A stretch of DNA of 52,141 nt from Calditrichota bacterium (GCA_016867855.1 VGIO01000001.1:1-52141); one strand, 5' to 3'; positions 10,774 to 34,106 are shown, counted from the first letter of the stretch. A program made the numbers and translations. The notes: generated by a model not told the origin, from the letters alone.

Positions 10774-12018
10774 ATGGCCAAAGAAACACTGATAAGTCCG
10801 CACGGTTCAAAGACGTTGCGTCCCTTGCTATTAGTAGGCAAGGAACTCGCCGACGAGAAGAAACGCGCGGCTAAAATGCCGCAGTATAAAATCAGTTCGC
10901 GCGAGGTCGGCGACCTGATAATGCTTGGCATCGGCGGTTTCACCCCGCTGGAAGGTTTTATGACGTATGACGACTGGAAGGGCGTCTGCGTCAATATGAA
11001 AACGGCTTCCGGGCTATTCTGGCCCATCCCCATCACGGTCTCGGTGGACAAAGCCTTCGCCAATAAAATCAAGGCAGGCAAAGAGATTGCGCTTGTCAAC
11101 GAGGAAGACGGCGACTTGATGGCTACGATGACCGTAACCGATAAGTATTCCATCGACAAAGATTATGAATGCAAAGAGGTCTTTAAAACGACCGACCCGG
11201 AACATCCTGGTGTGCAGATGGTGATGGCGCAGAAGGAAATCAACCTCGGAGGTCCGGTCAGGGTTCTTTCCGAAAGCGCTTTTCCGGTCGAATTCAAAGG
11301 TCTCTATCAGCGTCCGGCTGAGAGCCGCGCGATCTTCCAGGAGCGCGGCTGGAAGACCATCGCCGCCCTCCAACTTCGCAATCCTATGCACCGCTCTCAC
11401 GAATACCTCGCCAAGATTGCCATCGAAATTGTGGATGGTCTTTATATCCATCAATTAGTTGGGAAACTGAAGCCCGGCGATATCCCGGCTGATGTGCGCG
11501 TCAAGTGTATCAATGCGCTGGTCGATGGCTATTTCGTGAAATCGTCGGTGCTGATGGGCGGCTACCCGCTCGATATGCGCTATGCCGGTCCACGCGAAGC
11601 GTTGCTGCACGCTGTCTTCCGCCAAAATTTCGGTTGCACGCACCTCATCGTCGGCCGTGATCACGCCGGTGTCGGCAACTACTATGGACCTTTCGACGCG
11701 CAGAAGATTTTCGACGAAATCCCGAAAGGCGCGCTGAAAATCGGTATTCTGCCTATCGACTGGACATTTTTCTGCTATAAGTGCGCCGGGATGGTCTCGA
11801 TGAAAACCTGCCCGCATGGCAAGGAAGACCGCCTGTTTTTGTCCGGCACGGCTTTGCGCAAAGGATTGTCCGAAGGCGCGCCAATTCCAGCCGAATTCAG
11901 CCGGCCCGAGGTGCTGGAAATCCTGCGCGACTATTACGCCGGGCTTGATAAGAAGGTCGAAATCAAGATGCACCAATACGCTACCGGCGAAGTCAAGAAG
12001 CCGGAAGCCAGAGCCTGA
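10774..12018 (+). CDS. sat: Sulfate adenylyltransferase (ATP sulfurylase)
   Basis: 414 aa. Motifs [11 protein letters not shown] and GRDHAGVG, with overall Sat architecture. Confidence 0.95.
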
Positions 12019-14662: not shown

Positions 14663-14753
14663 GCAATTTAATTGGACATAGTTGACTGAGTGGACATATT
14701 GGAAAATACGAACGCTGTTTGGCTCACAGTCCAATTTTCAGCGGCATAAGAAT

Positions 14754-15029
14754 ATGAATCCTGAAGCCTCCGATATACCGCATTGTCCGCACTGCTTCAA
14801 ACGACTGGCGAAGATGTCCGTCCCGCCCGACGGCGGCTACGACAGCGAGTTCCTCTATGTCTGCTTCAACGACGATTGTCCCTACTACATTCAGGGCTGG
14901 GACTGGATGTTCAGGCAGTATTATGTGCGCGCCTCTTATCGTTACCGCCTCAATCCGCTGACTGGCGGCGAAGGTCCGATAGCGGTTTGGTCGCCGGCCG
15001 CGATGAAAGACCGGATATTATTGGATTAA
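14754..15029 (+). CDS. Small C4 zinc-ribbon protein of unknown function
   Basis: CPHC..(22 aa)..CFNDDC. ATG at 14754 is preferred, because the longer ORF-track start (TTG 14682) lies in a 9-bp repeat block. Confidence 0.55.
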   Translation: MNPEASDIPHCPHCFKRLAKMSVPPDGGYDSEFLYVCFNDDCPYYIQGWDWMFRQYYVRASYRYRLNPLTGGEGPIAVWSPAAMKDRILLD

Positions 15030-15038
15030 GCGGCAGAG

Positions 15039-15869
15039 ATGGATTCACTCGCTAACTTAAAACAAACCATCCTTAAGGACTATCCCCGTTTAAGCGAGCA
15101 GGATGGCTTCGCCTTCGAATGCGGCGCGCATTTGGAATGCTTTAATGTCTGCTGCGCGGATGTGAATATCTTCCTGACGCCATACGATGTGCTGCGGATG
15201 CGGAAGGCAGTCGGATTAGGCTCGGGCGAATTCCTCGCCCGATACACCCTCGTGCCGTTCGATAAATCGCAGCATCTGCCCACACCGCTGCTTAAGATGA
15301 GCGAGACGGAGGGCAAAGCCTGCTATTTTGTGGATGCGTTTAAAGGCTGCACGATTTACAGTCATCGGCCTTGGCCCTGCCGTATGTATCCGTTAGGGTC
15401 GGCATCGCCGGGCGAGACCGAAAAGGACGCCGATCGGCTGTTCTATTTTATGATGCGCGAAGAGTTCTGCCAAGGGCACGGCTGCCCGCATATCTGGACG
15501 GTTGCCGAATGGCTGGAAGACCAAGGCGTCGCCAAATACGCTGAATTCGGCGAGATGTTCAAGGGCATCACCCTGCATCCAGCCTTCAGCAAGGGCTATC
15601 AACTCTCGCCGCAGCAGATTGAGATGTATTGGATCGCGTTGTTCGATCTCGACAAATTCCGTGGTTTTATATTCAGTTCCAGTTTTTTAAAGCGGTTCGA
15701 AATCCCGGCGGATTTTATCGAACTGCTTCGCATCGACGACGAGGCGCTTTTGAAATTCGGCTTCAGCTGGACGGCGCTGGCGCTGTTTGGCGACAAGACG
15801 CTCAATGTGCGCCCCGAGGCGGTTAAAATGCAGCCTCAATTTAATAATAAGAAAAGCAGCCGTGTCTAA
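15039..15869 (+). CDS. YkgJ/UPF0153-family cysteine-cluster (Zn- or Fe-chelating) protein
   Basis: 276 aa. ECGAHLECFNVCC and CYFVDAFKGCTIYSHRPWPCRMYP match the CxxCxxCC-family pattern. Confidence 0.6.
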   Translation: MDSLANLKQTILKDYPRLSEQDGFAFECGAHLECFNVCCADVNIFLTPYDVLRMRKAVGLGSGEFLARYTLVPFDKSQHLPTPLLKMSETEGKACYFVDAFKGCTIYSHRPWPCRMYPLGSASPGETEKDADRLFYFMMREEFCQGHGCPHIWTVAEWLEDQGVAKYAEFGEMFKGITLHPAFSKGYQLSPQQIEMYWIALFDLDKFRGFIFSSSFLKRFEIPADFIELLRIDDEALLKFGFSWTALALFGDKTLNVRPEAVKMQPQFNNKKSSRV

Positions 15870-17443: not shown

Positions 17444-18715
17444 ATGACCCCAACAAAATCTAAAACTCTCGAATGCGACCTGATGGTCATTGGCGGAGGG
17501 ATTGCAGGTATAACCGCTGCCGTCGAAGCCGCCGAGATGGGCAGGTCGGTCATGTTAGTCGAGAAGGAACATTACCTTGGCGGGCAAGTCGCCCGAATGC
17601 ACCGCTATTTCCCCAAGTTGTGTCCGCCGCTCTGCGGGATGGAAATCAACTTCCGCCGTATTAAGAATAATACTCTTATTACGGCGCTTACCGGCGCTGC
17701 GCCGGCGAAAATCGCCAGCGCAGGTTCAGGCTATCAAGTTGAGGTTATGGTCGAGCCGCGCTTTGTAACCGAAGCCTGCACGGCTTGCGGCGACTGTGAA
17801 AAAGTCTGCACGGTCGAAGCCCCGGATGCGTTCAATATGGGTCTAACTAGAGCCAAAGCCATCCGCCTGCCTTATGAAATGGCATATCCTTACCGCTATT
17901 ATGTCGATAAATCCGCCGTTCAGCATCCGTCGCTGCAGGCAGCTGCTAAAATCTGCCCGGCACAAGCCATCGACCTGTCGATGCAGCCGCTTTTAACGAC
18001 TGTTAAAACCAAAGCGGTGGTATGGGCTGCCGGCTGGCAATCTTACGACGCTGCCAAACTGCCCGAGTTGGGCTTCGATGTGCTGCTAAATGTGGTAACG
18101 AACCTGCAATTTGAGCGCATTGCCGCCAATGCTATTTTAGCGAATAATAAAATCGTCCGGCCGTCGGACGGCGCGCCGCTGGCCTCGGTCGCCTTTGTGC
18201 AGTGCGCCGGATCGCGCGACGACAACCACCTGCCCTATTGCTCCGCCGTCTGCTGTATGGCGTCGCTCAAGCAGAGCCGTTACATCCGCGAGCAATATCC
18301 CGACGCCGAAATTCATATATTCTTCATAGATGCCCGCACGCCGGGACGCTGGGAAGATTTCTATGTAAATGTTCAAGACGACCCGAAAACGATTGTTCAC
18401 CGCGGTAAAGTCGGCAAAATCGAGGCAGCCGATAATTCAAATCTTACGATTATCGCTGAAAATACCTTGACCGGCAACCTTGAGCGCGTTACGGTCGGGA
18501 TGGCGATACTCGCCGTTGGAATGGAGCCGGTTAGAGGCGCTAAGGAACTTGGCTTGCCTTTGGCGTTCGACAAATACGGTTTTGCTTATAGAAACGGCGC
18601 GGCTAATGTGATGCCGGCGGGAGTCGCCGCCGGACCTAAAGATGTCGCTGCCAGCGTGCAGGAAGCCACCGGCTCTGTGGCGCTGGCGTTAAGCGCCATC
18701 GGGAGGAGTATATAA
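17444..18715 (+). CDS. qmoA: Qmo complex subunit A (HdrA-like flavoprotein)
   Basis: 423 aa. FAD fold DLMVIGGGIAGITAA, HdrA-like Cys motifs, TAATG overlap with qmoB. Confidence 0.85.
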   Translation: MTPTKSKTLECDLMVIGGGIAGITAAVEAAEMGRSVMLVEKEHYLGGQVARMHRYFPKLCPPLCGMEINFRRIKNNTLITALTGAAPAKIASAGSGYQVEVMVEPRFVTEACTACGDCEKVCTVEAPDAFNMGLTRAKAIRLPYEMAYPYRYYVDKSAVQHPSLQAAAKICPAQAIDLSMQPLLTTVKTKAVVWAAGWQSYDAAKLPELGFDVLLNVVTNLQFERIAANAILANNKIVRPSDGAPLASVAFVQCAGSRDDNHLPYCSAVCCMASLKQSRYIREQYPDAEIHIFFIDARTPGRWEDFYVNVQDDPKTIVHRGKVGKIEAADNSNLTIIAENTLTGNLERVTVGMAILAVGMEPVRGAKELGLPLAFDKYGFAYRNGAANVMPAGVAAGPKDVAASVQEATGSVALALSAIGRSI

Positions 18716-20943
18716 TGGATGCGAAATTAGGTGTTTATCTTTGCACCGGCTGCGGCATCAAAGACGCTATGGACACCGACAAGTTGCTCGATTTCGCCCA
18801 AAAGGAAGTCAAACCTGTTGTGCGGCGCTGCGACCCGTTGGTCTGCAGCGCGGAATTTATAAACCAAATCAAGACCGATATCGCCGGGCAAGGTTTGAAC
18901 CGCGTCGTCGTCGCGGCTTGTTCACAGCGGTATTTTGCCGACCGCTTCGATTTTGGCGCAGATATATTAGTTGACCGCGTGCCGCTGCGGGAGTTTGTAG
19001 TTTGGACGCATCAGCCCAACGAGGAAGAGACGACCGCGCTAGCCGAAGACTACCTGCGGATGGCAGGAGTGCGGGCGCGCAACAGCGAGCCGCCGACGCC
19101 TCACATCGAAGAGGTGTCCAAAGATATTTTAGTCATCGGCGGCGGCGTCGCCGGGCTTAGCGCAGCCAAAGCCGCGGCTGAAGCCGGTTATAATGTCGTG
19201 CTGGTCGAGAAAGAAGCCGAATTAGGCGGTTGGGCGCGCAAATTCAAAGCCGTCTATCCAACGAAATCCCCATTTAACTTACTTGAGAAGTCGCCGCATC
19301 ACGAAATGATTGCAGCGGTGAAAGATAATCCATATATTAAAGTTTTCACAAATTCGACAGTCACTCTCACAAGCGGTCAGCCGGGACTGTTCGATGTAAC
19401 AATCGAGACTGGCGCCGAAAAGACCGAGTTGCGCGTTGGTGCGATCGTGCAGGCTACGGGTTGGCGGCCTTACGACGCTGGCAAGTTGATAAAATACGGA
19501 TTTGGCCTTTATCCTAATGTAGTGACAAATGTGCAATTTGAGGAGATGGCGCTGAATGGCGGGATTAAGAAGCCTTCCGATGGGAAAGCCCCGCAGAGCA
19601 TCGCTGTCATTCATTGCGCCGGTTCACGCGATAAAGAGCATCTGCCTTACTGCTCGGCGGTTTGCTGCCGGACCTCGCTTAAGCAGGCGCTCTATGTGCG
19701 CGAAGCGCTGCCACAGACCGATGTCTATCTGCTCTATAAAGACATCCGCACGCCCGGACTATATGAAGAGTTCTATACCTATGTACGCGAACAGGAGCAT
19801 ATTTACCTAACTAAAGGCGAAGTAATAGAGGTTGCGCAAGATAGCGACGGGATGTTGCGCATCACCCTCGACGACACCTTGTTCGGCGAGAGAGTTGCGG
19901 TCAAAGCCGATTTGTTAGTATTGGCAACCGGAATGGCGCCCTCGACGCTGCCTATGGAGGAGACGGTTGAGGAAACCACCGCCGAATCCCCGGCGACTAC
20001 AGCCGACGGTAAGAAAGCCGCCGCTTCAGCTGAAGTTGGCGCGAAGATACTCAACCTAACTTACCGTCTCGGCACCGACCTGCCGAATTTGAAATACGGC
20101 TTTCCCGATTCGCACTTTATATGTTTCCCTTATGAAACCCGTCGCACGGCGATATATGCCGCCGGCGCGACGCGCGCGCCAATGGATTTGTCCTCGGCGC
20201 AGAATGATGGACTCGGCGCGGCGCTTAAAGCGCTGCAAGCCGTCGAAGCCGTGGCGCGCGGCGCGGCGGTTCATCCTCGCGTCGGCGATGTCAGTTTCCC
20301 TGATTTCTTTCTACAGCGCTGCACCCAATGCAAACGCTGCACCGAAGAATGTCCTTTCGGCACGCTCGACGAAGACGACAAAGGCACGCCGAAGCCTAAT
20401 CCCAATCGCTGTCGTCGCTGCGGAATATGTATGGGCGCCTGTCCGGAACGGATTATTTCGTTTAAAAACTATTCGCCCAATATGATTTCACAGATGATAA
20501 AAGCCATTGAAATTCCCGAAGAGGATGAAGAGAAGCCGCGTATATTAACCTTTATGTGCGAGAACGACGCTGTCCCGGCGCTGGACATCGCGGCTTGGCG
20601 CCGCCGGCAGATTGATCCGACCATCCGCATCATCCCGGTGCGCTGCATCGGTTCGGTCAATACGATTTTCATCGCCGACGCGCTCTCCAACGGCTTCGAC
20701 GGCATCCTGCTGCTCGGCTGCCAGCGCGGCGACGACTATCAATGCCACTTCATCCGCGGCAGCGAACTCGCCAACCGGAGGATGGAGAATGTGCAGGAGA
20801 AGTTAAAGCAACTTGTTCTCGAACCGGAGCGCGTCAGAATCGAGGCTGTCGAACTGACCGATTGGGAGCGGCTGCCGAAATTGATGAACGACTTCGCTGA
20901 AGAGGTGCGCGGCTTGGGCGCGAATCCATACAAGGGATTTTAG
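18715..20943 (+). CDS. qmoB: Qmo complex subunit B (HdrA-like, ferredoxin insert, C-terminal MvhD-like domain)
   Basis: 742 aa. ILVIGGGVAGLSAA; CTQCKRCTEECP and CRRCGICMGACP; MvhD-like tail ILTFMCENDA..VRCIGSVN..GILLLGC. Confidence 0.85.
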   Translation: MDAKLGVYLCTGCGIKDAMDTDKLLDFAQKEVKPVVRRCDPLVCSAEFINQIKTDIAGQGLNRVVVAACSQRYFADRFDFGADILVDRVPLREFVVWTHQPNEEETTALAEDYLRMAGVRARNSEPPTPHIEEVSKDILVIGGGVAGLSAAKAAAEAGYNVVLVEKEAELGGWARKFKAVYPTKSPFNLLEKSPHHEMIAAVKDNPYIKVFTNSTVTLTSGQPGLFDVTIETGAEKTELRVGAIVQATGWRPYDAGKLIKYGFGLYPNVVTNVQFEEMALNGGIKKPSDGKAPQSIAVIHCAGSRDKEHLPYCSAVCCRTSLKQALYVREALPQTDVYLLYKDIRTPGLYEEFYTYVREQEHIYLTKGEVIEVAQDSDGMLRITLDDTLFGERVAVKADLLVLATGMAPSTLPMEETVEETTAESPATTADGKKAAASAEVGAKILNLTYRLGTDLPNLKYGFPDSHFICFPYETRRTAIYAAGATRAPMDLSSAQNDGLGAALKALQAVEAVARGAAVHPRVGDVSFPDFFLQRCTQCKRCTEECPFGTLDEDDKGTPKPNPNRCRRCGICMGACPERIISFKNYSPNMISQMIKAIEIPEEDEEKPRILTFMCENDAVPALDIAAWRRRQIDPTIRIIPVRCIGSVNTIFIADALSNGFDGILLLGCQRGDDYQCHFIRGSELANRRMENVQEKLKQLVLEPERVRIEAVELTDWERLPKLMNDFAEEVRGLGANPYKGF

Positions 20944-21134: not shown

Positions 21135-22307
21135 ATGCCAGAACAAAAATTTCCTGACAAATTACAAGAACTAAAATCCGGCGCGTGGCCGAGTTTCGTC
21201 AAAGAAATCGAAAACGCCGCCCAGACCAGCCCGATGGCTAAAGACCTCTATGGCCAACTCAATCAATCCTATAACGAAAAGATAGGCCATTGGAAGCATG
21301 GCGGCATCGTCGGGGTGCTGGGCTATGGCGGCGGCGTCATCGGACGCTACAGCGACCTGCCGGAGACCTGGCCGAATGTCTCCCATTTCCACACGATGCG
21401 CATCAACCAGCCGGCGGCTTGGTTCTACCGGGCTGAAGACCTGCGCAAAGTTTGCGACATCTGGGAGAAGCGTGGCTCTGGGCTGACTAATATGCACGGC
21501 TCGACCGGCGACATCATCCTCTTAGGCACCACAACCCCCGAACTGGAACCGATTTTCAATGAGTTGACCGCCATAGGTTTCGACTTGGGCGGTTCAGGCT
21601 CGTGTATGCGGACGCCATCCTGCTGCGTCGGTCCGGCACGTTGCGAATGGGCGATGTATGACACCCTGGCGCTGACCTACGACTTGACAATGACTTATCA
21701 GGATGAATTGCACCGGCCGGCGTTCCCCTATAAGTTCAAGTTTAAGATGGCCGGCTGCCCGAACGACTGCGTGGCGTCGATTGCCCGCGCCGATATGTCC
21801 ATCATCGGCATCTGGCGCGACGAAATCCAAATCGATCAGGACGCCGTGCGCGAATATGCCGAGCGCGGCTTGAACATTCAATCGGTGGTCGTCGGACGCT
21901 GCCCGACCCGCTGTATGGCTTGGGACAGCAAAGAGCTGTTCATCGACAATGAAAATTGCTCACGCTGTATGCACTGCATCAATGTGATGCACCGGGCGCT
22001 GCGCCCCGGCAACGACCGCGGTGCGACGCTGCTAATCGGATCCAAAGCGCCGATTATGGAAGGCGCCCTGCTCTCGAGCGTTTTAGTCCCGTTCCTCGAA
22101 ATCGTTCCACCTTACGATGACATAAAAGGTCTCGTCAATAACATCTGGGAACTATGGGCGGAAGAGGGCAAGAACCGTGAACGCGTCGGCGAATTTATTC
22201 AACGCGTCGGGCTGGCGAACTTCCTCGACGCAATCGGGTTGGAGCCTGAGCCTGAAATGATCGCCTTCCCGCGCGAAAATCCCTATGTGTTCTATCGCAC
22301 TGAATAG
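21135..22307 (+). CDS. dsrA: Dissimilatory sulfite reductase alpha subunit
   Basis: 390 aa. [31 protein letters not shown], sirohaem/FeS motifs CVGPARC and CPNDC, ferredoxin insert CPTRC..CSRCMHC. Confidence 0.95.
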
Positions 22308-22514
22308 ACAAGATTTGTCTTTTCAGCGTGTTTTTTCAAACTAAAGTTTAAAACCTGACCTAAGGTTTAATAAATCTATAAACGACTAACTGTTGGACAG
22401 TTAGTTGTCCCGCTTCATTTACAAGACGGGATTAGATTAAAGCGCTTTTAAAATTCAGCGCATATTCCTTGCGCTGCATATAAATAACAAGTTTATTGCT
22501 TAAGGAGACAGAAA

Positions 22515-23597
22515 TTGGCTGCTGAGCCTGTTAAACGGGTAACCGATATCGGTCCGCCGCACTACGGCAAATATTTGCCGCCGGTAGTGAAGGCGAATTA
22601 CGGCAAGTGGGTTGACCACGAGATACTCGAGCCGGGCGTAATGGTGCATATAGCCGAGTCCGGCGCTAAGGTTTATACTGTGCGAGCGGCTTCGCCGAGA
22701 TTAATTTCGGTCAACAAAATCCGTGCTTACTGCGATTTGGCGGATAAATACTGCGAAGGTTTTCTCCGCTTCACCAGCCGTAATAATGTGGAGTTCCTGA
22801 CCGCTAAGGCTGAGAATGTTGCGCCGATGAAGAAGGATCTCGAGGCGCTCGGACATCCAGTCGGCGGGATGGCGAACTCCATCTCTAACATTGTGCACAC
22901 GCAAGGCTGGGTGCACTGCCATTCGGCGGCGACCGACGCTTCGGGCATCGTCAAATCGGTGATGGACGCTTTGCACGAGGAGTTCACGCATATGCGGATG
23001 CCGGGCAAACTGCGCATCGCGCTGGCTTGTTGCTTGAATATGTGCGGCGCGGTGCATTGCTCTGACATCGCCATCCTCGGCATTCACCGCAAGCCGCCCA
23101 AAGTCGAGACCGAGCGTCTGCCGAAAATCTGCGAAATACCGACCGCTGTAGCCTCCTGCCCGACCGCCGCCGTGCGTCCAGCCAACATTAGCGGAGTGAA
23201 CACGGTGGAAGTCATCGAAGAGAGCTGTATGTATTGCGCGAACTGCTTCACCGTCTGCCCGGCGATGAAGTTGAACGACGCTGAAAACGACGGGCTCTCG
23301 ATTTGGGTCGGCGGCAAGGTGTCGAACGCCCGTCACGAACCGATGTTTTCCAAATTAGCCATCCCTTATATTCCTAACAATCCGCCGTGCTGGCCGGAAG
23401 TTGTCGATGCAGTCGTCAACATCGTCAAGATTTGGTCGAAGAATGCCCAGCCTTACGAGCGGATGGGCGAATGGATTGAGCGGATTGGCTGGCCTAAATT
23501 CTTTAAGATGGCCGGCATTCCTTTCAGCCGCGAGCATATCGACGACTTTAAGCATGCCGGTCTGACCTATAAACGGTCAACGCATATCCGGTTCTAA
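22515..23597 (+). CDS. dsrB: Dissimilatory sulfite reductase beta subunit
   Basis: 360 aa. TTG start 7 nt after [44 protein letters not shown]. Confidence 0.95.
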
Positions 23598-23614
23598 CCG
23601 GAAAGGAGAGCGAA

Positions 23615-23872
23615 ATGCCAGATATGGTATCTGTAGCCGAAGTCGCTGATACGATGTTCAAACTCGTCAAACAAGCCGCTGGACTTAAGAAGTATAAAGC
23701 GATGGACTTGGAGAAGGCGATGCGCGAACTTTACGGCGACCGGGTGGACAAGGCAGTTTCCAAAGCGGCGATTAAGGAATTAATCGACAGCGGGCGCTGC
23801 GTCTATACCTATTTCGGCGGAAGTTATATCGAAATACCGCATACGGAAGCCGCGGCTAATCCGCAAGGCTGA
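23615..23872 (+). CDS. dsrD: DsrD (small winged-helix protein of reductive dsr loci)
   Basis: 85 aa directly after dsrB. Lys-rich helix plus a ..IKELIDSGRCVYTYFGGSYIEIP.. pattern like the DsrD YWSSGSTTMY region. Confidence 0.75.
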   Translation: MPDMVSVAEVADTMFKLVKQAAGLKKYKAMDLEKAMRELYGDRVDKAVSKAAIKELIDSGRCVYTYFGGSYIEIPHTEAAANPQG

Positions 23873-25293
23873 TGCCGCTATTAAATGCCCCGCGTCTGGC
23901 GCTTGCCGGTAGCGGCGGCGACAGTGGTAAAACTCTCGCGGCGCTGGGCTTAATCCGTGCCTGGCGCCGCGAGGGCACGGTTGTCCAACCCTTCAAGAAA
24001 GGACCTGATTACATCGATTCGGCTTGGCTGTCGCGGGCGGCTGAGCGAACGGCGCGCAATCTCGACAGTTTCTTGATGGGCTTCGACGGCGTAATACGCT
24101 CTTTTGCCCGCTATTCCATCGCCGATGGTCTGAATGTCATCGAAGGCAATCGGGGATTGCACGACGGCGAAGACGCCGCCGGCTGTCATTCGACCGCCGC
24201 GCTGGCCAAGAAATTAAATGCGCCGGTCGTCGTGATTGTGCCGATTGTCAAAATCACACGCACGGCGGCGGCGATAGTCTTGGGCTTGAAGATGTTGGAT
24301 CCGCAAGTAAATATCGCGGGTGTCATCCTGAACCGCGTCGCAGGCGCCAGGCACGAGAGCGTAACCCGCAATGCGATTGAGGATGCGACCGGTATTCCCG
24401 TGCTGGGCGCGCTGCCCAAGTTGTCTGGTTTTCCTCTGCCGGTGCGGCATCTCGGTCTGGTGACGCCGGAAGAGAACGACTATGCGGCTTTTGTCGTCGA
24501 ACGCAGCGCCGACTTACTCGGGCAGTATGTTGACATAAAAACCATCCGCGGTTTTGCCGCCGGCGCGCCGCCGCTGGAGGTCGAAGCGCTCGCTGTGCCG
24601 CAAACTGTTGCAGCCGCAAAGCCGGAAGGTTTGCGCATCGGCTGGTTCAGCGGCCCGGCTTTCACTTTCTATTATCCGGAAAACCTCGAGGCTCTCGCTG
24701 CCTTAGGGATGGAGTTAGTTCCAGTCAATCCTTTGACCGACAAGCGGCTGCCGGAAATAGACGCTCTTTACATCGGAGGTGGATTTCCTGAAACGCACGG
24801 CGCGCATCTGGCGGGAAATGAATTTCTGAAGATGAGTCTGCGCGAGGCGGTGGGAACCGGCTTGCCAGTCTGGGCTGAGTGCGGAGGATTGATGTATTTG
24901 GCGCAGGCGATAATCTGGCAGGAGCGCCGTTTCGAGATGGCCGGTATGCTGCCGGTCGAAGTCGAAGTCGGCGATGCGCCGCAGGGTCACGGTTATACTG
25001 TGATGACGGTCGACAGTCCCAATCCGTTCTTTAAAGTCGGGACGGTTATCCGCGGCCACGAATTTCATTACTCGTTCATTCCGACGGAAATTCAATGCCG
25101 AACGATATTTAAAATGAGCCGCGGCGCAGGCGTCGGAGGTCAGCGCGACGGTCTTATGGTCAATAATGTTGTGGCGGTTTATTCGCATATCCACGCCTCT
25201 GCTACGCCTGGGTGGGCGGAAGGAATGACGCGCGCGGCTTCAGACTACAGACGATGGAAGACTGAGCCGCCCATAGAATCCAACCTATCATAA
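23872..25293 (+). CDS. dsrN: DsrN, cobyrinate a,c-diamide synthase-like sirohaem amidase
   Basis: 473 aa. P-loop GSGGDSGKT, glutamine amidotransferase Cys in WAECGGLMYL. TGATG overlap with dsrD. Confidence 0.85.
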   Translation: MPLLNAPRLALAGSGGDSGKTLAALGLIRAWRREGTVVQPFKKGPDYIDSAWLSRAAERTARNLDSFLMGFDGVIRSFARYSIADGLNVIEGNRGLHDGEDAAGCHSTAALAKKLNAPVVVIVPIVKITRTAAAIVLGLKMLDPQVNIAGVILNRVAGARHESVTRNAIEDATGIPVLGALPKLSGFPLPVRHLGLVTPEENDYAAFVVERSADLLGQYVDIKTIRGFAAGAPPLEVEALAVPQTVAAAKPEGLRIGWFSGPAFTFYYPENLEALAALGMELVPVNPLTDKRLPEIDALYIGGGFPETHGAHLAGNEFLKMSLREAVGTGLPVWAECGGLMYLAQAIIWQERRFEMAGMLPVEVEVGDAPQGHGYTVMTVDSPNPFFKVGTVIRGHEFHYSFIPTEIQCRTIFKMSRGAGVGGQRDGLMVNNVVAVYSHIHASATPGWAEGMTRAASDYRRWKTEPPIESNLS

Positions 25294-25322
25294 TTTTACT
25301 TGAAATTTACAATTCTATATAA

Positions 25323-27011
25323 ATGTGTCCACTTGTTTTAAAACCTAAAAAACCGCTTGTAACCACTGGGGCGCACGCGGCCGGCGGGGCGGTCGGCGGC
25401 GAAACCAGCAACCTGCGTCCTTATCAAATAGAGAAACTCGCTCCTTGTATGGACGCCTGTCCGCAAGGCACGGAAATACGCCGCGTCCTGACGACCATCG
25501 CCCAAGCAGAAAAGTATGAGAAGCCGCAGGACGAGGCTTTCGACGAGGCTTGGCGCATAATTGCGGAAAAGAATCCGCTGCCGGCAGTTTGCGGCCGCGT
25601 CTGTCCGCATCCTTGTGAAGAGAAATGTAACCGCGACAAGAAAGACGGTTCGGTAGGCATCAATAATATCGAACGTTTCCTCGGCGATTGGGGGTTGCAA
25701 CGCGGCTTGAAACCAACCTTTAAGACCGAGGAACATTATCCAGAGAAAATTGCCGTTATTGGCAGCGGTCCGGCCGGCCTGTCCTGCGCTTACTATTTGG
25801 CGCGCAACGGTTATAAAGTGACGATTTACGAAGCCTTTCCGCATCCGGGCGGAATGCTGCGCTACGGCATTCCGGCTTACCGTTTGCCACGTGACATTCT
25901 CGATGCAGAAATAGAGCGCGTGCTGGATTTAGGCGTCGAACTGAAGACCGGCGTCGTCGTCGGCAAGGATATTCCATACACCGGCTTGCAAGCGCAGTAT
26001 GATGCAATTTTCGTCGGCATCGGCGCGCATCAAGGCGTAAAACTGCGTGTGCCGGGCGAAGATGTCTCAAATGTCTATAGCGGCGTTACCTTCCTGCGGC
26101 TGGTCAATATGGATAAGCCGGTCGAGACCGGGGACAAGGTCGTGGTCATCGGCGGCGGCGATACAGCCATCGATGCGGCGCGCGTCGCGCTGCGCCTCGG
26201 CGCCAAAGTAACCCTGCTCTATCGCCGCACGCGCAACGAAATGCCGGCGATTGAAGAGGAGATTGTCGGCGCTGAAGAAGAAGGCGTGGTCTTTCATTTT
26301 CTCGCCGCGCCGTTGGAGATTATTACCGAGGATGGCAAGGCCGTCGCAATGCGCTGCCAGCGTATGGAACTCGGCGAGCCGGATGCATCCGGCCGGCGTC
26401 GTCCGGTGCCGATTCCCGGCGATGAATTCACCATCCCAGTAACCGCTGTCATCGCGGCTGTATCGCAAGAACCGGGCTGGGACGGTCTTGACCATTTGCA
26501 TACTGGACGCGACTGGGTCAAAGCGGACAAATTGGGCGAGACTTCTATCGAGAAGACCTTCGCCGGCGGCGATGTCTTAGACCTCGGCTTAGTGACGATA
26601 GCGCTTTATCAGGGCCGGCGCGCGGCTGAGACCATCCACCGCCGATTCCGCGGCTGCGAATTGAGTGAAGAATCTAAATTGCCGGTGATTCCCGCCGATA
26701 AAATTACTCTAACTTATTACGAGAATGTCCTGCGGCAGGAATGCGAGAAACTCGCAGTCGAAGACCGCTTTAAAGAGCCATGGGTGGAAATCGCCAAAAC
26801 CCTGCCGGAAGCGGCGGTCATCGCCGAGGCGAAGCGCTGTATGAGTTGCGGTTCCTGCTTCGACTGCGGTTCGTGCTGGAGTTATTGTCAGGATAATGCC
26901 ATCATCAAACCGCTGCAGGACGGTATGCCCTATAAATTCAAACTCGAATTCTGCAAGGGCTGCAATAAATGCGCTGAAAACTGCCCGTGCGGATATTTGG
27001 AAATGAAGTAG
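25323..27011 (+). CDS. dsrL: DsrL-like NAD(P)H:acceptor oxidoreductase (GltD/NfnB-like FeS flavoprotein with an extra C-terminal 2x[4Fe-4S] ferredoxin domain)
   Basis: 562 aa. CGRVCPHPCEEKC; dinucleotide folds VIGSGPAGLSCA and VVIGGGDTAIDAA; C-terminal CMSCGSCFDCGSC and CKGCNKCAENCP. Sits between dsrN and dsrC. Confidence 0.65.
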   Translation: MCPLVLKPKKPLVTTGAHAAGGAVGGETSNLRPYQIEKLAPCMDACPQGTEIRRVLTTIAQAEKYEKPQDEAFDEAWRIIAEKNPLPAVCGRVCPHPCEEKCNRDKKDGSVGINNIERFLGDWGLQRGLKPTFKTEEHYPEKIAVIGSGPAGLSCAYYLARNGYKVTIYEAFPHPGGMLRYGIPAYRLPRDILDAEIERVLDLGVELKTGVVVGKDIPYTGLQAQYDAIFVGIGAHQGVKLRVPGEDVSNVYSGVTFLRLVNMDKPVETGDKVVVIGGGDTAIDAARVALRLGAKVTLLYRRTRNEMPAIEEEIVGAEEEGVVFHFLAAPLEIITEDGKAVAMRCQRMELGEPDASGRRRPVPIPGDEFTIPVTAVIAAVSQEPGWDGLDHLHTGRDWVKADKLGETSIEKTFAGGDVLDLGLVTIALYQGRRAAETIHRRFRGCELSEESKLPVIPADKITLTYYENVLRQECEKLAVEDRFKEPWVEIAKTLPEAAVIAEAKRCMSCGSCFDCGSCWSYCQDNAIIKPLQDGMPYKFKLEFCKGCNKCAENCPCGYLEMK

Positions 27012-27142
27012 CCTCAAAGGCGGGACATTTTCGCCAAAGTCGAGGAATTAGGCGGTTGGTATGTCGCATAGATAATAGTATTCTTTATATAAAAATAACT
27101 TCGCGTTTCGATGCGAAGCCAACAACATCAAGGAGAAACACA

Positions 27143-27460
27143 ATGCCCAAATTTGAGTGGCAAGAAGTCAGTATCGATGTGGACGAGGATGGTTTTATCG
27201 AGGATCCCGCGCTCTGGAATGAGCAGGTCGCCTTAGCGCTCGCCAGCACCGAGGGTGTCGATGCTTTGACTGAGGATCACTGGAAATTAATCAACTACCT
27301 TCGCGAGTATTACGCCAAGTTCGGCATAGCCCCGATGATTCGCAAACTTTGCAAAGAAACTGGCTATTCGTTGAAGGAAATCTACGATTTATTTCCGTCC
27401 GGTCCCGCCAAGGGCGCCTGCAAAGTCGCCGGTCTTGCCAAACCGACCGGATGCGTATAG
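27143..27460 (+). CDS. dsrC: DsrC (two redox-active Cys on the C-terminal arm)
   Basis: 105 aa from the ATG at 27143, 6 nt after AAGGAGA. C-terminus ..GACKVAGLAKPTGCV has both conserved Cys. The 52-aa upstream extension in the ORF track has no support. Confidence 0.9.
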   Translation: MPKFEWQEVSIDVDEDGFIEDPALWNEQVALALASTEGVDALTEDHWKLINYLREYYAKFGIAPMIRKLCKETGYSLKEIYDLFPSGPAKGACKVAGLAKPTGCV

Positions 27461-27489
27461 TATTCTATCTTTGGCAAATTAGCGATTTA

Positions 27490-27527
27490 GGGGGGTATCG
27501 GCGGAATTTCGATTGGTACCCCCTTTT
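27490..27527 (+). terminator. Rho-independent terminator after dsrC
   Basis: GGGGGTA..TACCCCC stem followed by TTTT, 30 nt after the stop. Flanked by the direct repeats TTAGCGATTT. Confidence 0.6.
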
Positions 27528-27949
27528 AATTTAGCGATTTTGTTGCCAATCGTTATCTCATACCAATTTGCAATCAAATGATGAGTAATATGATTCTAAA
27601 TTAACAACGGATTGAACGGATAAAACGGATTAACATAGCGGCTTCACAAATTTATCCGTTTCATCTGTTTAATCTGTTGTGAATTTGTTTTTGACATTTA
27701 TCATCCGATTGATTGCGACTTGGTATCACCATAACTATACGAGATTGCTATATTACGGACGTTGGTCTCCATTGAGCAGCAACCGTATTGTGATTTAAGA
27801 ATGTTGCTATCGAAAAAAGAGTCTCGATAGCAAAACGCTTTATACATCAGTTTATCAGTGCAAACTGGCGACATCTTCGTTATTAAGCAAACGAGTTATT
27901 AGTTATTAAAATTATAGCCTTTAGGAAAACTCAAACCTTGAACCGTTAA

Positions 27950-28876
27950 ATGCCTTATCTATTATATTTAACTGCGGCTGTCTTCATTATAGGCAGTCTT
28001 TATCGCTTGATACGAATCATCCGGATGCCGGTTCATCTGCGCTGGGAACTCTATCCGGTGCCGCATGAACCGCCATCGAAAGTCCGCTACGGCGGTTCGT
28101 TTATGGAAGAATCAGACTGGTGGCTCAAAGCCAGATCGACGAACAAACTCGGCGCATTGGGAGTGATGCTGCCGGAAATCTTCCTGTTAAAAGTTGTCTG
28201 GGAGCGCAATCGACTTCTGTGGATTTGGTCATTCCTAATGCACTGGGGATTATACTTGTTCACTGCTGCGCTAGGACTTACTTTAGTCGGGAGCCTTATC
28301 GAACTTGCAGGGACACCTGTAGCGTCTGAAGGCGCTGTCGGAATCACGGCTTTATTATTCACTCTGATAAAAATCACCAGTTGGGCGGCCGGAATAACTG
28401 GCGCGGCAGGATGTATAGGAATGCTGCTCTTACGCATTTTCAGCCTAAGAATGCGACCTTTCACTTCTTTCGCCACAATTCTCAACCTCATACTCATCCT
28501 ACTGCTATTTGGGAGCGGATTAATCGCCTACTCTCAAGGTCCTCAAACCTTTAAGTGGCTTTTCGACTTGAGTAAGAGCGCCATATCGTTTAAGGCGGCT
28601 CCGCCTGTGTTTGGCTTCGCGGGAGTCCATTTTATCACTATTGCCATATTCGGTATCTATTTTCCCTTTACACATATGACTCATATGTTCGTCAAATACT
28701 TCACTTATCATCGTGTTCGATGGGATGACAAGCCGATGTCAGCTGGAAGCGTCCGTGAACAGCATATAATAAATTCGCTCAAGCAACCTGTAACCTGGGC
28801 TGCGCCGCATATTCGCGGCGATGGGAAGAAAAACTGGATCGATATTGTGTCTGCCAAAGGAGACGAAGTTGCCTAA
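27950..28876 (+). CDS. DsrM-like NarI/HdrE-family membrane cytochrome b (paralogue)
   Basis: 308 aa, about six TM helices. N-terminus ..YRLIRIIRMPVHLRWELYPVPHE typical of the NarI-gamma family. Coupled to the following HdrD-like gene. Confidence 0.65.
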   Translation: MPYLLYLTAAVFIIGSLYRLIRIIRMPVHLRWELYPVPHEPPSKVRYGGSFMEESDWWLKARSTNKLGALGVMLPEIFLLKVVWERNRLLWIWSFLMHWGLYLFTAALGLTLVGSLIELAGTPVASEGAVGITALLFTLIKITSWAAGITGAAGCIGMLLLRIFSLRMRPFTSFATILNLILILLLFGSGLIAYSQGPQTFKWLFDLSKSAISFKAAPPVFGFAGVHFITIAIFGIYFPFTHMTHMFVKYFTYHRVRWDDKPMSAGSVREQHIINSLKQPVTWAAPHIRGDGKKNWIDIVSAKGDEVA

Positions 28877-30476
28877 ATCACTTAAAGTCTCGGATATCAG
28901 CCATCCGGTCGAACAACTTGCCCAAGTTCGTCCCGATGAATTGATGCCTTTACCGCCGCCTTACGATAAAATCGAAGAGCAGCCCGGATGGAAAGAGATT
29001 AGTCCGGCACAACGTCAAAAATATGAAGCCTCATTAGACGGGGTTGTGGCTGTAGGCGTGCCAATACCCGCCACTGCCGAGGAAGAGGACCGACTCGTTG
29101 AAGGATTTCTATCCGGCCTAAAGAAGTTACTCACAAAGGAGAACAACTGGACTTTTCTACAACAGTTGATGCTCTCAATAGATCATTGCGCAAGATGTCA
29201 GAATTGTATCGAAACGTGTCCTATCTATGTCTCAAGTGGTTACAATGATATTTATCGACCAACTTTTCGCAGCGATCTTTTTAGACGGTTGGTTTCTAAA
29301 TACATAAAACCGGGCGGCAAGTATTTCGGCGAGTTAAAACAAGGCGCGATCGAGTTAAATTGGCGCACTGTCAGCCGATTATTAGAACTTGCTTATCGTT
29401 GCACACTTTGTCGGCGTTGTGCTCATGCCTGTCCTATTGGATTGGGAAATGCGCTAATAACTCATGAACTAAGAAAGTTATTTAGTATGGAATTTGGCTA
29501 CTCGCCAAAAGAGATACATGATAAAGGTTCGATGCTGCAACTCAAAGTGGGTTCATCTACGGGGATGAACAGATTAGCGGTAATGGATAATGTCGAATTT
29601 ATCGATGAAGATATGAGTGATCTTACCGGGCTTAGTGTTAAGAGCGTCTGGGATAAGGAAGGCGCTGATGTTTTATTGATACATAACGCCGGTGAATTTA
29701 TTTCCTGGCCTGAAAATCCTGGAGCATTTGCTTTAATTCTTGAGGCTGCCGGCATCAGTTGGACACTATCAAGTGAACTGGCTGGGTATGATGGTATAAA
29801 TTATGGGCTTTGGTATGACGACGCGCAGTTCGCCCGCGTAGCATTGTTGCACGCACAGGCAGCCAAGAAACTGAAGGTCAAGAAAATCGTAATCGGCGAG
29901 TGTGGTCACGCACATAAAGCCTTAACCGTCATTGCCGATCGCATTCTGACCGGCGACCTAAGCGTCCCTCGCGAGAGCGCGCTTGTCCTGTTACGTGAGA
30001 TTGTAATGTCCGGCAAACTCAAGTTGGACCCATCGCGCAATGACTTTCCGATAACACTCCACGATCCGTGTAATATGGTGCGTCTGATGGGCATCGTCGA
30101 ACCACAGCGGGAAATACTCCGTAAGATTGCCCCTAAATTCCGCGAGATGGAGCCACACGGGGTGTATAATTACTGCTGCGGCGGCGGTTCCGGCTTTGCC
30201 ATTATGTCGCCCTTCAACTTCCAGGACTGGCGGCTCTCAGTGTCCGGTCGAATGAAACTGAAGCAAATTGTCGAAGCCTTCGCCGATTGCCCAGGCCCAG
30301 AAACGCCCAAGTATCTTTGCGCACCCTGCTCCAATTGTAAGGGTCAAATCCGCGATCTATTCCGTTATTACGGCGTCTGGGAAAAGCAGCGCATCCTTTA
30401 CGGCGGACTGGTCGAACTCATCGTCAACGCGATGGTGGACATAAAAGAACCTTTTATCAAATGGGAATTTCATTGA
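28821..30476 (+). CDS. DsrK-like HdrD-family FeS protein with CCG domains (paralogue)
   Basis: CARCQNCIETCP, CTLCRRCAHACP, CCG motifs HDPCNMV and YCCGGGSG. The more likely start is TTG 28869, 6 nt after AAGGAG, giving an 8-nt overlap with the upstream stop. Confidence 0.7.
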   Translation: MGRKTGSILCLPKETKLPKSLKVSDISHPVEQLAQVRPDELMPLPPPYDKIEEQPGWKEISPAQRQKYEASLDGVVAVGVPIPATAEEEDRLVEGFLSGLKKLLTKENNWTFLQQLMLSIDHCARCQNCIETCPIYVSSGYNDIYRPTFRSDLFRRLVSKYIKPGGKYFGELKQGAIELNWRTVSRLLELAYRCTLCRRCAHACPIGLGNALITHELRKLFSMEFGYSPKEIHDKGSMLQLKVGSSTGMNRLAVMDNVEFIDEDMSDLTGLSVKSVWDKEGADVLLIHNAGEFISWPENPGAFALILEAAGISWTLSSELAGYDGINYGLWYDDAQFARVALLHAQAAKKLKVKKIVIGECGHAHKALTVIADRILTGDLSVPRESALVLLREIVMSGKLKLDPSRNDFPITLHDPCNMVRLMGIVEPQREILRKIAPKFREMEPHGVYNYCCGGGSGFAIMSPFNFQDWRLSVSGRMKLKQIVEAFADCPGPETPKYLCAPCSNCKGQIRDLFRYYGVWEKQRILYGGLVELIVNAMVDIKEPFIKWEFH

Positions 30477-30520: not shown

Positions 30521-31036
30521 ATGAGAAACGCTGAATTGAACGCGGTTAAGGCGGCGATTTTGGAGCGCTGGCGCGAGGCGATTATAGCCACCTATCCGGT
30601 CGAGGCTCGCAGGTATCTGCAAGACAATCGCAGCCGGTTCAGCAACCCCATCGGGCTGGCGGTCGAACAAGCCAGCGCCGAAGTGTTGGACTACATTTTC
30701 GCCGCGGACGGCGCGGCGCTGAATTGCGAAGCGTTAATCGACCTCATCCGCATCCGCGGCGTGCAGGATTGGACAGCGTCGCAAGCGGTCGGCTTCATCG
30801 ACGAACTGCGCGACATTATCCACCGCCACTTATGGTCGCCTGTTTATATGCAAGGTCGGACGGAAGTCTATTTTCGCTGGCTGCGGCGCCTCGATGCCGT
30901 TGAACTGGCAGCGTTTGACATCTATGTCGCGCAGCGCGAGAAACTTGCCGATATTCGCGTCGACGAATTCCGGCGCCGCTATGCTAAAATTATTGAGAGA
31001 AGTGGAAAGTTTGAAAGTGAGAGAGTAAGAAAGTGA
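30521..31036 (+). CDS. RsbRD-N-terminal-domain-like protein in the DsrT position
   Basis: 171 aa directly upstream of dsrM. Pattern ..ILERWREAIIATYP..FSNPIG..IRIRGVQDW.ASQAVGF.. The last about 11 codons are read from an 8-bp repeat block. Confidence 0.5.
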   Translation: MRNAELNAVKAAILERWREAIIATYPVEARRYLQDNRSRFSNPIGLAVEQASAEVLDYIFAADGAALNCEALIDLIRIRGVQDWTASQAVGFIDELRDIIHRHLWSPVYMQGRTEVYFRWLRRLDAVELAAFDIYVAQREKLADIRVDEFRRRYAKIIERSGKFESERVRK

Positions 31037-31106: not shown

Positions 31107-32099
31107 ATGAGAATTTTGTTCTCTCTGGCGGCGGTTTTAGCGCTCCTATTAGTGGCTTATGTCGGAGTTGCAGCGGCCGGGGGGAGTTACTTTTTCCTGG
31201 TCGTATTTCCCTATTTAGCGCTGGCTGCCTTTTTCATAGGGATAATTTATCGCATTCTGAAGTGGGCTGGGGCGCCAGTGCCGTTTCATATCCCGACTAC
31301 TTGCGGGCAGCAGAAATCGCTGGGCTGGATTAAACCCGCCAAATTGGAAGCGCCATCTACGACCTGGCAGGTTATTGGTCGGATGGCTTTGGAAATCCTG
31401 CTGTTTCGTTCGCTGTTCCGCAACACCAAGGCAGAACGCGTGCCGGGCGAAAAGGTCGTCTATGGCTCCTGCAAATGGCTCTGGGCTGCCGGGCTGGCAT
31501 TCCACTGGTCCTTTCTTATCGTCTTTATCCGCCATCTGCGGCTGTTTCTCGAGCCGATTCCGCAAGCCATGATTTGGCTGGAGAACCTCGATGGCTTCTT
31601 TCAGGTCAGCGTGCCGGGCGTGCTGATTACGGATATAATACTGCTGTCGGCCATTACTTTCCTATTTCTGCGGAGGATCTTTAGCCGGCAGATACGATAC
31701 ATTTCGCTAGCGGCGGATTATTTCCCCCTGTTCTTAATCTTCGGCATCGCCGCCACCGGCGTCCTGATGCGGCACTTCTTCAAGGTTGACCTTAAAGCCG
31801 TCAAGCAATTCGCCATCGGGCTGGTATCGTTCAGCCCGTTGCAGCCGGAAGGACTAGGTATAATTTTCTATCTGCATATATTTTTAGTGTTCGTCTTAAT
31901 CGCCTATTTTCCGTTCAGCAAACTGATGCATATAGGCGGTATTTTCTTAAGTCCGACGCGCAATCTGGCTAACAACAGCCGCGCTGTGCGGCATATAAAT
32001 CTGTGGAATCCCAAAGTCAAAATGCACTCTTATCAGGAATGGGAAGATGAATTCCACGATTTAATCATCGGCGCCGGTCTGCCTTTGGATAAGGAGTAA
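31107..32099 (+). CDS. dsrM: DsrM, membrane dihaem cytochrome b of the DsrMKJOP complex
   Basis: 330 aa NarI-like membrane protein. GGAG RBS. First gene of a tightly coupled M-K-J-O-P series. Confidence 0.85.
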   Translation: MRILFSLAAVLALLLVAYVGVAAAGGSYFFLVVFPYLALAAFFIGIIYRILKWAGAPVPFHIPTTCGQQKSLGWIKPAKLEAPSTTWQVIGRMALEILLFRSLFRNTKAERVPGEKVVYGSCKWLWAAGLAFHWSFLIVFIRHLRLFLEPIPQAMIWLENLDGFFQVSVPGVLITDIILLSAITFLFLRRIFSRQIRYISLAADYFPLFLIFGIAATGVLMRHFFKVDLKAVKQFAIGLVSFSPLQPEGLGIIFYLHIFLVFVLIAYFPFSKLMHIGGIFLSPTRNLANNSRAVRHINLWNPKVKMHSYQEWEDEFHDLIIGAGLPLDKE

Positions 32100-32101
32100 G
32101 G

Positions 32102-33718: not shown

Positions 33719-34106
33719 CCGCGGGAAAATTGTCGCCGGTCTGATTATCTTCCTTGTTTTGATTACCACGCCGATTTGGATGAACCTCGTCGCTGAAGGC
33801 GACGCTGAAGGACCAGAAATCGAAATCCTCACCAAAGATGTTCCGGGACAGGATAAATGCGTCAAATCCAAGACCGAAATGGCCGCGCAGCATATGGACT
33901 TGCTGAACACCTGGCGAGACGAGGTCGTGCGGTCTAAGGCGCGGGTTTATCAAACCGCCGACGGACGCTATTATGCGAAAAGCCTGACGCATACCTGTCT
34001 GAAATGCCATTCCAACAAGGACAAGTTCTGCGACCGCTGCCATATTTATGTCGGCGTTAACCCTTATTGTTGGGATTGTCATAACGAGCCGAAGGAGTTT
34101 AAATGA
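33711..34106 (+). CDS. dsrJ: DsrJ, periplasmic trihaem cytochrome c
   Basis: 131 aa. N-terminal anchor and three CxxCH sites (CLKCH, CDRCH, CWDCH). Confidence 0.9.
   Translation: MNDRGKIVAGLIIFLVLITTPIWMNLVAEGDAEGPEIEILTKDVPGQDKCVKSKTEMAAQHMDLLNTWRDEVVRSKARVYQTADGRYYAKSLTHTCLKCHSNKDKFCDRCHIYVGVNPYCWDCHNEPKEFK

Follow-up and report, generated by a model that had tools for sequence, protein, structure and literature searches.

We analysed a stretch of 52,141 nucleotides (nt) labelled Calditrichota bacterium (GCA_016867855.1 VGIO01000001.1:1-52141), referred to here in its full length as the window, which carries a dissimilatory sulfite reductase (dsr) operon where a gene for a putative divergent DsrD and a gene for a predicted type 2 DsrL lie side by side with dsrA, dsrB, dsrN and dsrC. 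An earlier note, made from the sequence alone, had proposed that dsrD and a dsrL-like gene coexist in this operon, and all of the elements that it named were recovered on the + strand at their coordinates. Family scores given here and below were obtained with curated models (Pfam and NCBIfam). The genes and features of the operon are as follows.

21135-22307, + strand: dsrA (TIGR02064, 557 bits)
22515-23597, + strand: dsrB (TIGR02066, 486 bits; TTG start)
23615-23872, + strand: putative dsrD of a divergent subfamily, 85 amino acids (aa), winged helix (remote homology, position and fold)
23872..25293, + strand: dsrN (siroheme amidase, CobB-like; TIGR00379, 406 bits; GATase_3 and CbiA domains)
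25323-27011, + strand: predicted dsrL of type 2, 562 aa, with a C-terminal 2x[4Fe-4S] ferredoxin domain (PRK12771, motifs and synteny)
27143-27460, + strand: dsrC, 105 aa (PF04358, 124 bits)
27489-27525, + strand: hairpin and U-tract, likely terminator of dsrABDNLC (-23.5 kcal/mol, z = -3.6)

The 85-aa open reading frame (ORF) starts 17 bp 3′ of dsrB and its end overlaps the start of dsrN by 1 nt, while dsrL starts 29 bp 3′ of dsrN and dsrC follows 131 bp 3′ of dsrL, with a likely start at 27143 preceded by an AGGAGA ribosome-binding site. DsrC ends in GACKVAGLAKPTGCV, a Cys-x10-Cys-Val arrangement in which CysA is penultimate, and by these two C-terminal cysteines the predicted product is a true DsrC, not TusE/RspA. 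Just 3′ of the dsrC stop codon, the hairpin at 27489-27525 is followed by UUUUAAUUU; it is likely an intrinsic terminator, and dsrABDNLC therefore looks like one transcription unit. A promoter/terminator consensus scan returned counts that were not above those of shuffled sequence and missed the hairpin after dsrC, which was found by eye and then folded.

The arrangement is conserved well beyond the window. For synteny we used the 80 genome loci with the nearest DsrL homologues, of which 65 hold both dsrB and dsrL; all 80 are dsr loci, and the order dsrB-ORF-dsrN-dsrL-dsrC is found in 62 of the 65. The small ORF stands right after dsrB in every one of these 65 loci (median gap 23 bp between tblastn matches). 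The longer order dsrA-dsrB-dsrD-dsrN-dsrL-dsrC recurs under Electryoneota, Calditrichota, Zixibacteria, Ignavibacteria, Kapabacteria and Acidobacteria labels, among others.

The product of 25323-27011 had been described as a GltD/NfnB-like iron-sulfur flavoprotein after dsrN and upstream of dsrC, and its domains, the quoted motifs and the coordinates all bear this description out. Fer4_20 is matched at residues 40-127, Pyr_redox_2 at 142-431 and, weakly, Fer4_21 at 511-561, and the motifs CMSCGSCFDCGSC (residues 506-518) and CKGCNKCAENCP (544-555) were confirmed. PRK12771 (NCBIfam) matches the protein over its full length with 579 bits against a cut-off of 516, and the NfnB/GltA, GltD, AegA and YgfK models all stay under their cut-offs. 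Homologues number in the thousands. In an alignment of the window protein with 80 genomic relatives (81 sequences; median length 561 aa), the tripeptide YRR at residues 300-302 is invariant (81/81), as are C506, C509, C512, C515, C518, C522, C544, C547, C550 and C554, with C556 present in 80 of the 81. Towards the N-terminus, C42, C46, C94, C98, C102 and E117 are invariant or nearly so and C90 occurs in 73 sequences. Upstream of C42/C46 lies S29-x2-R32 (S29 in 78/81, R32 in 79/81), whose equivalence to NfnB positions is by motif position only; no alignment to Thermotoga maritima NfnB covered this stretch.

Type 2 DsrL has been defined by a YRR motif in the domain that binds nicotinamide adenine dinucleotide (phosphate), NAD(P), which is absent from DsrL-1 and was linked to the strict dependence of the Desulfurella enzyme on NADP(H) (Löffler 2020, PMC7596348). 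The same study reported that DsrL-2 proteins occurring with reductive DsrA carry Ser or Thr at the position of NfnB Cys39 and Arg at that of NfnB Cys42, that the cysteines of the C-terminal ferredoxin domain are strictly conserved in DsrL-2, and that an insertion of ~32 aa in the substrate domain and a linker longer by ~30 aa characterise DsrL-1A and are absent from DsrL-2. Against NfnI-L, the reference compared here, the NAD(P) domain of the window protein shows no large insertion. By description, the window protein resembles the DsrL-2 of Desulfurella amilsii (Löffler 2020, PMC7596348) in its YRR motif, its C-terminal ferredoxin domain, its link to reductive DsrAB and, probably, the shortness of its substrate-binding and linker domains. 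The lineages of its nearest named relatives (Kapabacteria, Zixibacteria, Acidobacteria and AABM5-125-24) have been typed as DsrL-2 or DsrL-2C (including Diao 2023, PMC10591310). By its sequence, the 562-aa protein is a predicted DsrL of type 2, not an NfnB, GltD or SudA enzyme unrelated to dsr, and YRR narrows its predicted cofactor to NADPH, a specificity that we infer for the window enzyme.

AlphaFold2 modelled the core of the protein well, with a predicted local distance difference test score (pLDDT) of ~85-97, and the C-terminal ferredoxin domain poorly (42-64); Foldseek matched the core to NfnB, NfnI-L and GltD, with E values between 1e-33 and 1e-52. There is no solved DsrL structure in the PDB, where the best matches by sequence and fold were NfnB-like subunits from two bifurcating complexes, NfnABC/StnABC, followed by NfnI-L/SudA, NfnB, Xfn and GltD. 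With the NfnB-like subunits (9BOV_A, 8OH5_C and 9N5U_A) and with 5JCA_L, 4YLF_B and 2VDC_G, the window protein shares a two-cluster N-terminus and domains for flavin adenine dinucleotide (FAD) and NAD(P)H (query-normalised Foldseek TM-score 0.65-0.79; identity 30-42%). It ends in its own 2x[4Fe-4S] ferredoxin domain, whereas the NfnB-like subunits of NfnABC/StnABC have a formate-dehydrogenase-like module. The homology of the core to NfnB, GltD and SudA and the Nfn/Stn subunits as best solved matches would suit an enzyme of one of these types with a function unrelated to Dsr, a grouping that the earlier note had considered, but this is scarcely credible because the only model to pass its cut-off is one that includes the C-terminal ferredoxin domain, the gene lies in a dsr operon with no adjacent NfnA or GltB partner gene, and its nearest genomic relatives fall in dsr loci (80/80), flanked by dsrN and dsrC in 62 of those 65 where dsrB is present as well.

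A more distant DsrL was seen in a Joint Genome Institute (JGI) metagenome (3300003873), at 8255-9946 of locus L084 (also in L085). It is 42% identical to the window protein and directly follows a Pfam-type DsrD, in the order dsrAB-dsrD-dsrL-dsrC-dsrMK. This protein has T-L-F instead of YRR and GGA-SALD where the window protein has GGGDTAID, with S-x2-R kept, and judged on these residues it does not fit a simple DsrL-1/DsrL-2 motif rule.

The ORF at 23615-23872 is not a chance reading frame, since 924 homologues were found at E ≤ 1e-3. These have no precomputed Pfam domain save for one weak TBPIP match, and those that carry names are called 'hypothetical protein' or, in one case, 'transcriptional regulator'. 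The product called at these coordinates is a 72-aa form that begins at Met14, even though homologues keep the 13 residues at the N-terminus. Among 42 family members, 24 weakly match the TBPIP winged-helix domain and 2 match the Pfam DsrD model PF08679 (E 0.046). The AlphaFold2 model of the 85-aa protein (pLDDT 88.6) has a helix-helix-helix-strand-strand winged-helix layout, with helices at residues 7-20, 29-43 and 46-59 and strands at 63-65 and 71-73.

The connection to DsrD was made through intermediate sequences. The family profile of the ORF, searched against 1.8 billion representative proteins, reaches three proteins, P0336 (E 6e-9), P0351 (8.5e-8) and P0381 (4e-5), that pass the PF08679 cut-off of 24.2 bits (27.1, 26.2 and 27.3 bits, respectively); the genes for P0351 and P0381 lie directly 3′ of dsrAB in their own contigs. 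For comparison we collected the family of Desulfovibrio vulgaris DsrD, using a reference sequence 100% identical to PDB 1UCR. Once the profile of the window's family was broadened, it covered Desulfovibrio DsrD from one end to the other with a top score of 18.3 bits, where the best among 2400 shuffles reached 9.6 bits; hhalign of this profile against Desulfovibrio DsrD gave E 1.9e-4 over 62 columns, with the helices and the wing in register. The small ORF does, then, align to DsrD, as the earlier note had supposed. What it had called a DsrD-like ORF after dsrB stands by position and remote homology; a direct match to the DsrD family was not obtained.

Compared with the DsrD proteins of D. vulgaris (1UCR) and Archaeoglobus fulgidus (PMC8794893), the window protein is likewise a small, Lys-rich winged helix encoded after dsrB, and the profile alignment to Desulfovibrio DsrD covers the whole domain. 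It differs in failing the Pfam DsrD model, in a longer second helix, in a wing that reads VYTYFGGSY and not YWSSGSTT, in a single cysteine (C62), and in the conserved C-terminal tail IEIPHxE(A/G)AAN of its family. The Desulfobacterota wing motif YWSSGSTT aligns to VYTYFGGSY in the window family; this motif and the lack of cysteine were given as features of Desulfobacterota DsrD (Ferreira 2022, PMC8794893), and they describe one DsrD clade, not the whole family.

Several results weigh against the DsrD assignment. PF08679 gave no match to the 85-aa protein even at E ≤ 10, nor did an NCBIfam scan of the ORF find DsrD, and searching PDB sequences with the ORF yielded nothing but noise. The DsrD structure 1UCR was not in the Foldseek top 50, which held generic winged-helix proteins instead, and the two narrow profiles, compared by hhalign, gave a non-significant E of 0.52. 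The absence of a direct Pfam match, the weak TBPIP matches, the missing YWSSGSTT motif and a Foldseek result made up of winged-helix proteins only, with Fur, MarR and histone H1 domains as the best, could together suggest an unrelated small winged-helix DNA-binding regulator that sits in the dsr operon by chance. We consider such a regulator very improbable, since the ORF keeps its place right after dsrB, with an overlap into dsrN, in all of the 65 loci, an unbroken chain of homologues at the same position reaches proteins above the Pfam DsrD cut-off, and the full-length profile alignment keeps helices and wing in register with Desulfovibrio DsrD. Canonical DsrD is itself a winged-helix protein, and dsrD is the published name of this gene in Kapabacteria, Zixibacteria and Acidobacteria. 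From sequence comparison, we conclude that the 85-aa protein is a predicted divergent DsrD, a positional and remote-sequence orthologue belonging to a subfamily that Pfam misses.

A further idea, that the divergent DsrD subfamily is tied solely to DsrL, was rejected: the Pfam-type DsrD P0381 also adjoins dsrL, and P0351 lies in a dsr locus that has no dsrL within 8 kb on each side.

The sulfite reductase itself resembles reductive enzymes. Window DsrA scores 496-527 bits against solved reductive DsrA chains, the DsrAB structures in the PDB being of the reductive type only. It is 64-78% identical to DsrA of loci labelled Kapabacteria, Zixibacteria, Ignavibacteria or Acidobacteria, lineages that have been placed in reductive bacterial DsrAB (including Diao 2023, PMC10591310). 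At two short primer sites only, DsrA reads G-H-W-K-H-G and DsrB C-A-N-C-F-T. The reductive primers DSR1F/DSR4R encode T-H-W-K-H-G and C-G-N-C-Y-T. The oxidative primers rDSR1F/rDSR4R encode x-G-Y-W-K and C-G-A-C-F/Y (Loy 2009). At these two short sites the predicted window residues resemble the reductive type more closely than the oxidative one. In a search for oxidative-type DsrA references, tblastn against plasmids gave no match, and a scan of viral contigs with a DsrA alignment turned up no relatives. The N-terminal extension of DsrB is kept in relatives, where tblastn matches span residues 1-360 in other loci. The gap between dsrA and dsrB (22308-22514) is unusually long at 207 bp; relatives, too, have gaps here, of ~70-180 bp as estimated from tblastn match coordinates.

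Around the operon, the window carries the remaining genes of the pathway.

10774..12018, + strand: sat (sulfate adenylyltransferase; NF003166, 504 bits)
12272-12715, + strand: aprB (adenosine 5′-phosphosulfate (APS) reductase; TIGR02060, 201 bits)
12726-14606, + strand: aprA (APS reductase; TIGR02061, 905 bits)
14682..15869, + strand: a conserved pair of unnamed genes 3′ of aprA (115-aa ORF, no family; 276-aa ORF, CxxCxxCC domain)
16112-17248, + strand: qmoC (NF038018, 409 bits)
17444-18715, + strand: qmoA (HdrA-like family matches)
18715-20943, + strand: qmoB (HdrA-like family matches)
27950..30476, + strand: dsrM-2/dsrK-2, a second DsrM-like/DsrK-like pair (weak Nitrate_red_gam match; DsrK equivalog below cut-off)
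30521-31036, + strand: dsrT (RsbRD_N domain)
31107-36035, + strand: dsrMKJOP (DsrM 498, DsrK 729, DsrJ 161, DsrO 296 and DsrP 460 bits)

By gene identity, the region from 10.7 to 36 kb, all on the + strand, is a complete dissimilatory sulfate-reduction gene cluster, and hemA comes after dsrMKJOP. The CxxCxxCC domain of the 276-aa ORF corresponds to a PF03692 match, and the synteny of both unnamed genes is kept in related loci. The dsrM-2/dsrK-2 pair, named in Thiel 2019 (PMC6338057), is placed between dsrC and dsrT, a synteny common to Kapabacteria-like loci; the dsrK-2 product scores 319 bits on the DsrK model against a cut-off of 400, and the listed ORFs of the pair have 56 nt in common. The qmo genes run in the order qmoC-qmoA-qmoB as opposed to the usual qmoABC, and in Kapabacteria-like loci a qmoC-like gene lies directly 5′ of dsrA with no qmoA or qmoB in between. 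The earlier observation that the window has no dsrEFH holds: Pfam and NCBIfam scans found no DsrE, DsrF or DsrH family among the non-nested window ORFs of at least 100 aa, and no intergenic gap is big enough for a dsrEFH cluster.

The pairing of dsrD with dsrL-2 alongside reductive dsrAB is already known, having been reported repeatedly since 2018, including from the phylum of the nearest named genome. The kapabacterium (UBA2268) 'Candidatus Thermonerobacter thiotrophicus' has a dsr locus with dsrD and dsrL (Thiel 2019, PMC6338057), and co-occurrence of the two genes in Acidobacteria was reported by Hausmann 2018, to the extent that this work is cited in Thiel 2019. The DsrL-2 class and its NADP(H) specificity were established by Löffler 2020 (PMC7596348), and DsrD was shown to act as an allosteric activator of DsrAB and discussed together with DsrL-2 by Ferreira 2022 (PMC8794893). 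The full pathway with dsrD and dsrL-2 has been documented in AABM5-125-24 (= Electryoneota), Zixibacteria, Acidobacteriota and others, and DsrL-2C next to reductive DsrAB was proposed as an indicator of reduction (Diao 2023, PMC10591310). Lineages of a 'group three' have lost dsrEFH and kept dsrD and dsrL, with a reductive metabolism (Klier 2024). In the Hausmann, Thiel, Löffler, Diao and Klier studies the configuration is interpreted as a pathway of reduction that draws on NADPH. The window shares with the AABM5-125-24, Zixibacteria and Acidobacteriota genomes of these studies (PMC10591310; Klier 2024) the full Dsr pathway, dsrD, a type 2 dsrL and the lack of dsrEFH.

A close published parallel in gene order is the Thermonerobacter/Kapabacteria locus (PMC6338057), which is near-identical in its blocks sat-aprBA-hyp-hyp-qmoC, dsrAB-dsrD-dsrN-dsrL-dsrC-dsrM2-dsrK2 and dsrTMKJOP. 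Proteins of Kapabacteria loci are 67-70% (DsrA), 59-60% (DsrL) and 58-63% (small ORF) identical to those of the window. Unlike the Thermonerobacter locus, the window lacks an additional ORF between dsrN and dsrL, has qmoA and qmoB directly after qmoC, and has dsrTMKJOP directly after dsrM2K2; its host is of a different lineage and comes from lake water, whereas Thermonerobacter comes from a hot spring.

Starting from these gene identities and the conserved operon, we infer the enzymatic roles and the reductive direction by analogy with characterised homologues and from publications on relatives. It is likely, in our estimation, that this complete cluster serves net sulfate reduction, with a DsrD-activated DsrAB fed by NADPH via DsrL-2. 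Sat, AprBA and Qmo would supply sulfite from sulfate, and DsrAB would reduce the sulfite on DsrC to form the DsrC trisulfide. The divergent DsrD, by homology to characterised DsrD, would bind DsrAB and raise its sulfite-reducing activity, and DsrL-2 could oxidise NADPH at its flavin and send the electrons through its iron-sulfur clusters to DsrAB. DsrN would amidate siroheme, while DsrMKJOP, perhaps together with the second DsrMK-like pair, would re-reduce the DsrC trisulfide from the quinone pool. The coupling of NAD(P)H to DsrAB that the earlier note put forward agrees with the biochemistry of DsrL in Löffler 2020 (PMC7596348), and YRR would point to NADPH as the donor.

DsrL-2 might also be more than a wire from NADPH to DsrAB. 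The nearest solved relatives are NfnB-like subunits of NfnABC/StnABC and what the low-potential C-terminal ferredoxin domain does is unexplained, so that a flavin-based electron-bifurcating or confurcating module could be envisaged. We hold this to be distinctly unlikely; if true, NADPH oxidation could drive the reduction of sulfite and of a low-potential acceptor simultaneously. In this same unlikely reading, the distinct DsrD subfamily of these lineages could be co-adapted to a DsrAB-DsrL-DsrD complex.

The direction of the pathway was taken in the earlier note to be unreadable from gene content. This is indeed the position of Löffler 2020 (PMC7596348), but later work takes the combination as an indicator of reduction. 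We favour sulfate reduction because the window has sat, aprBA and qmo but lacks dsrEFH, because Diao 2023 (PMC10591310) and Klier 2024 class this combination as reductive, and because night-time, low-oxygen transcript peaks were recorded for the same gene order in a relative (Thiel 2019, PMC6338057). Dyksma 2023 adds an acidobacterium metagenome-assembled genome (MAG), CO124, with DsrD and type 2 DsrL that is reported as sulfate-reducing. Given the Diao 2023 and Klier 2024 indicator and the Thiel 2019 transcript peaks, the ambiguity is smaller than the earlier note implied.

Other points weigh against a reductive direction. The evidence that favours a reductive type for the window DsrAB is indirect, and dsrEFH, searched for in the window, could lie elsewhere in the genome. 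According to Thorup 2017, as far as it is cited in Löffler 2020 (PMC7596348), purely 'reductive' gene sets can oxidise sulfide or disproportionate sulfur, and DsrL-2 is also found in genuine sulfur oxidisers (Löffler 2020, PMC7596348). A search for RNA sequencing runs for this organism found none. The same genes could serve an oxidative or disproportionating pathway, in which DsrABL-2 would hand electrons from the oxidation of sulfur or sulfide to NADP+, with Apr and Sat working in reverse. Proven sulfur oxidisers carry DsrL-2 and direction was held to be undecidable from sequence (Löffler 2020, PMC7596348), sulfide is oxidised by Desulfurivibrio and by cable bacteria although their gene set is 'reductive', and Electryoneota MAGs from Ace Lake have been inferred to be sulfite-oxidising. 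Set against these precedents, known oxidisers with oxidative rDsrAB are without DsrD, the window has no dsrEFH, the DSR1F/DSR4R-site residues resemble the reductive type, the DsrL has by motif position the Arg ligand variant reported for DsrL-2 with reductive DsrA, and relatives with the same operon express it at night under anoxia. An oxidative or disproportionating pathway is in our judgement improbable, while it is the strongest competitor of sulfate reduction.

As a discovery the combination carries little weight, being documented across many phyla with components that are biochemically characterised. The window offers a clean example, complete and in one contiguous stretch, from a little-studied lake bacterium of the Fibrobacterota-Chlorobiota-Bacteroidota (FCB) group, and could provide genes for expression. 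Screens for marker genes based on PF08679 would wrongly score such genomes as lacking dsrD, since this model misses the DsrD of FCB, Zixibacteria and Acidobacteria lineages (homologues P0121-P0240).

The window is an entire contig. Sequence near-identical to it was found in 9 lake-water metagenome runs from 2018, and single contigs in 4 independent lake-water assemblies span the region 21387-27669, which argues that the gene arrangement is not an assembly chimera. The host is an uncultured FCB-group bacterium from lake water, with Ca. Hatepunaea (Electryoneota) and 'Calditrichota' as nearest named relatives; a type IX secretion sorting domain in the small ORF at 38631-38942 fits this placement, as do those relatives. 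Among named genomes, that of Ca. Hatepunaea meridiana (phylum Ca. Electryoneota) is the nearest, with a DsrL 72% identical to that of the window. Across all collections, the best DsrL match reaches no more than 84% identity, and the organism is therefore a distinct species or genus. Adjoining the sorting-domain ORF, two adjacent ORFs of 378 and 309 aa on the - strand (38830-40892) have no Pfam or NCBIfam family.

The intergenic region between dsrC and dsrM-2 contains a nested imperfect palindrome at 27560-27726, with outer arms of 18 nt (89% complementary) and inner arms of 36 nt (83%). It occurs as one copy only in the window, and in four lake-water runs its unitig word depth is 425-697, compared with 13-23 in the flanks, with assembled contigs breaking there. 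These depths suggest a short element with ~20-30 copies, within the genome or across the community, similar to a miniature inverted-repeat transposable element (MITE) or a repetitive extragenic palindromic (REP) sequence.

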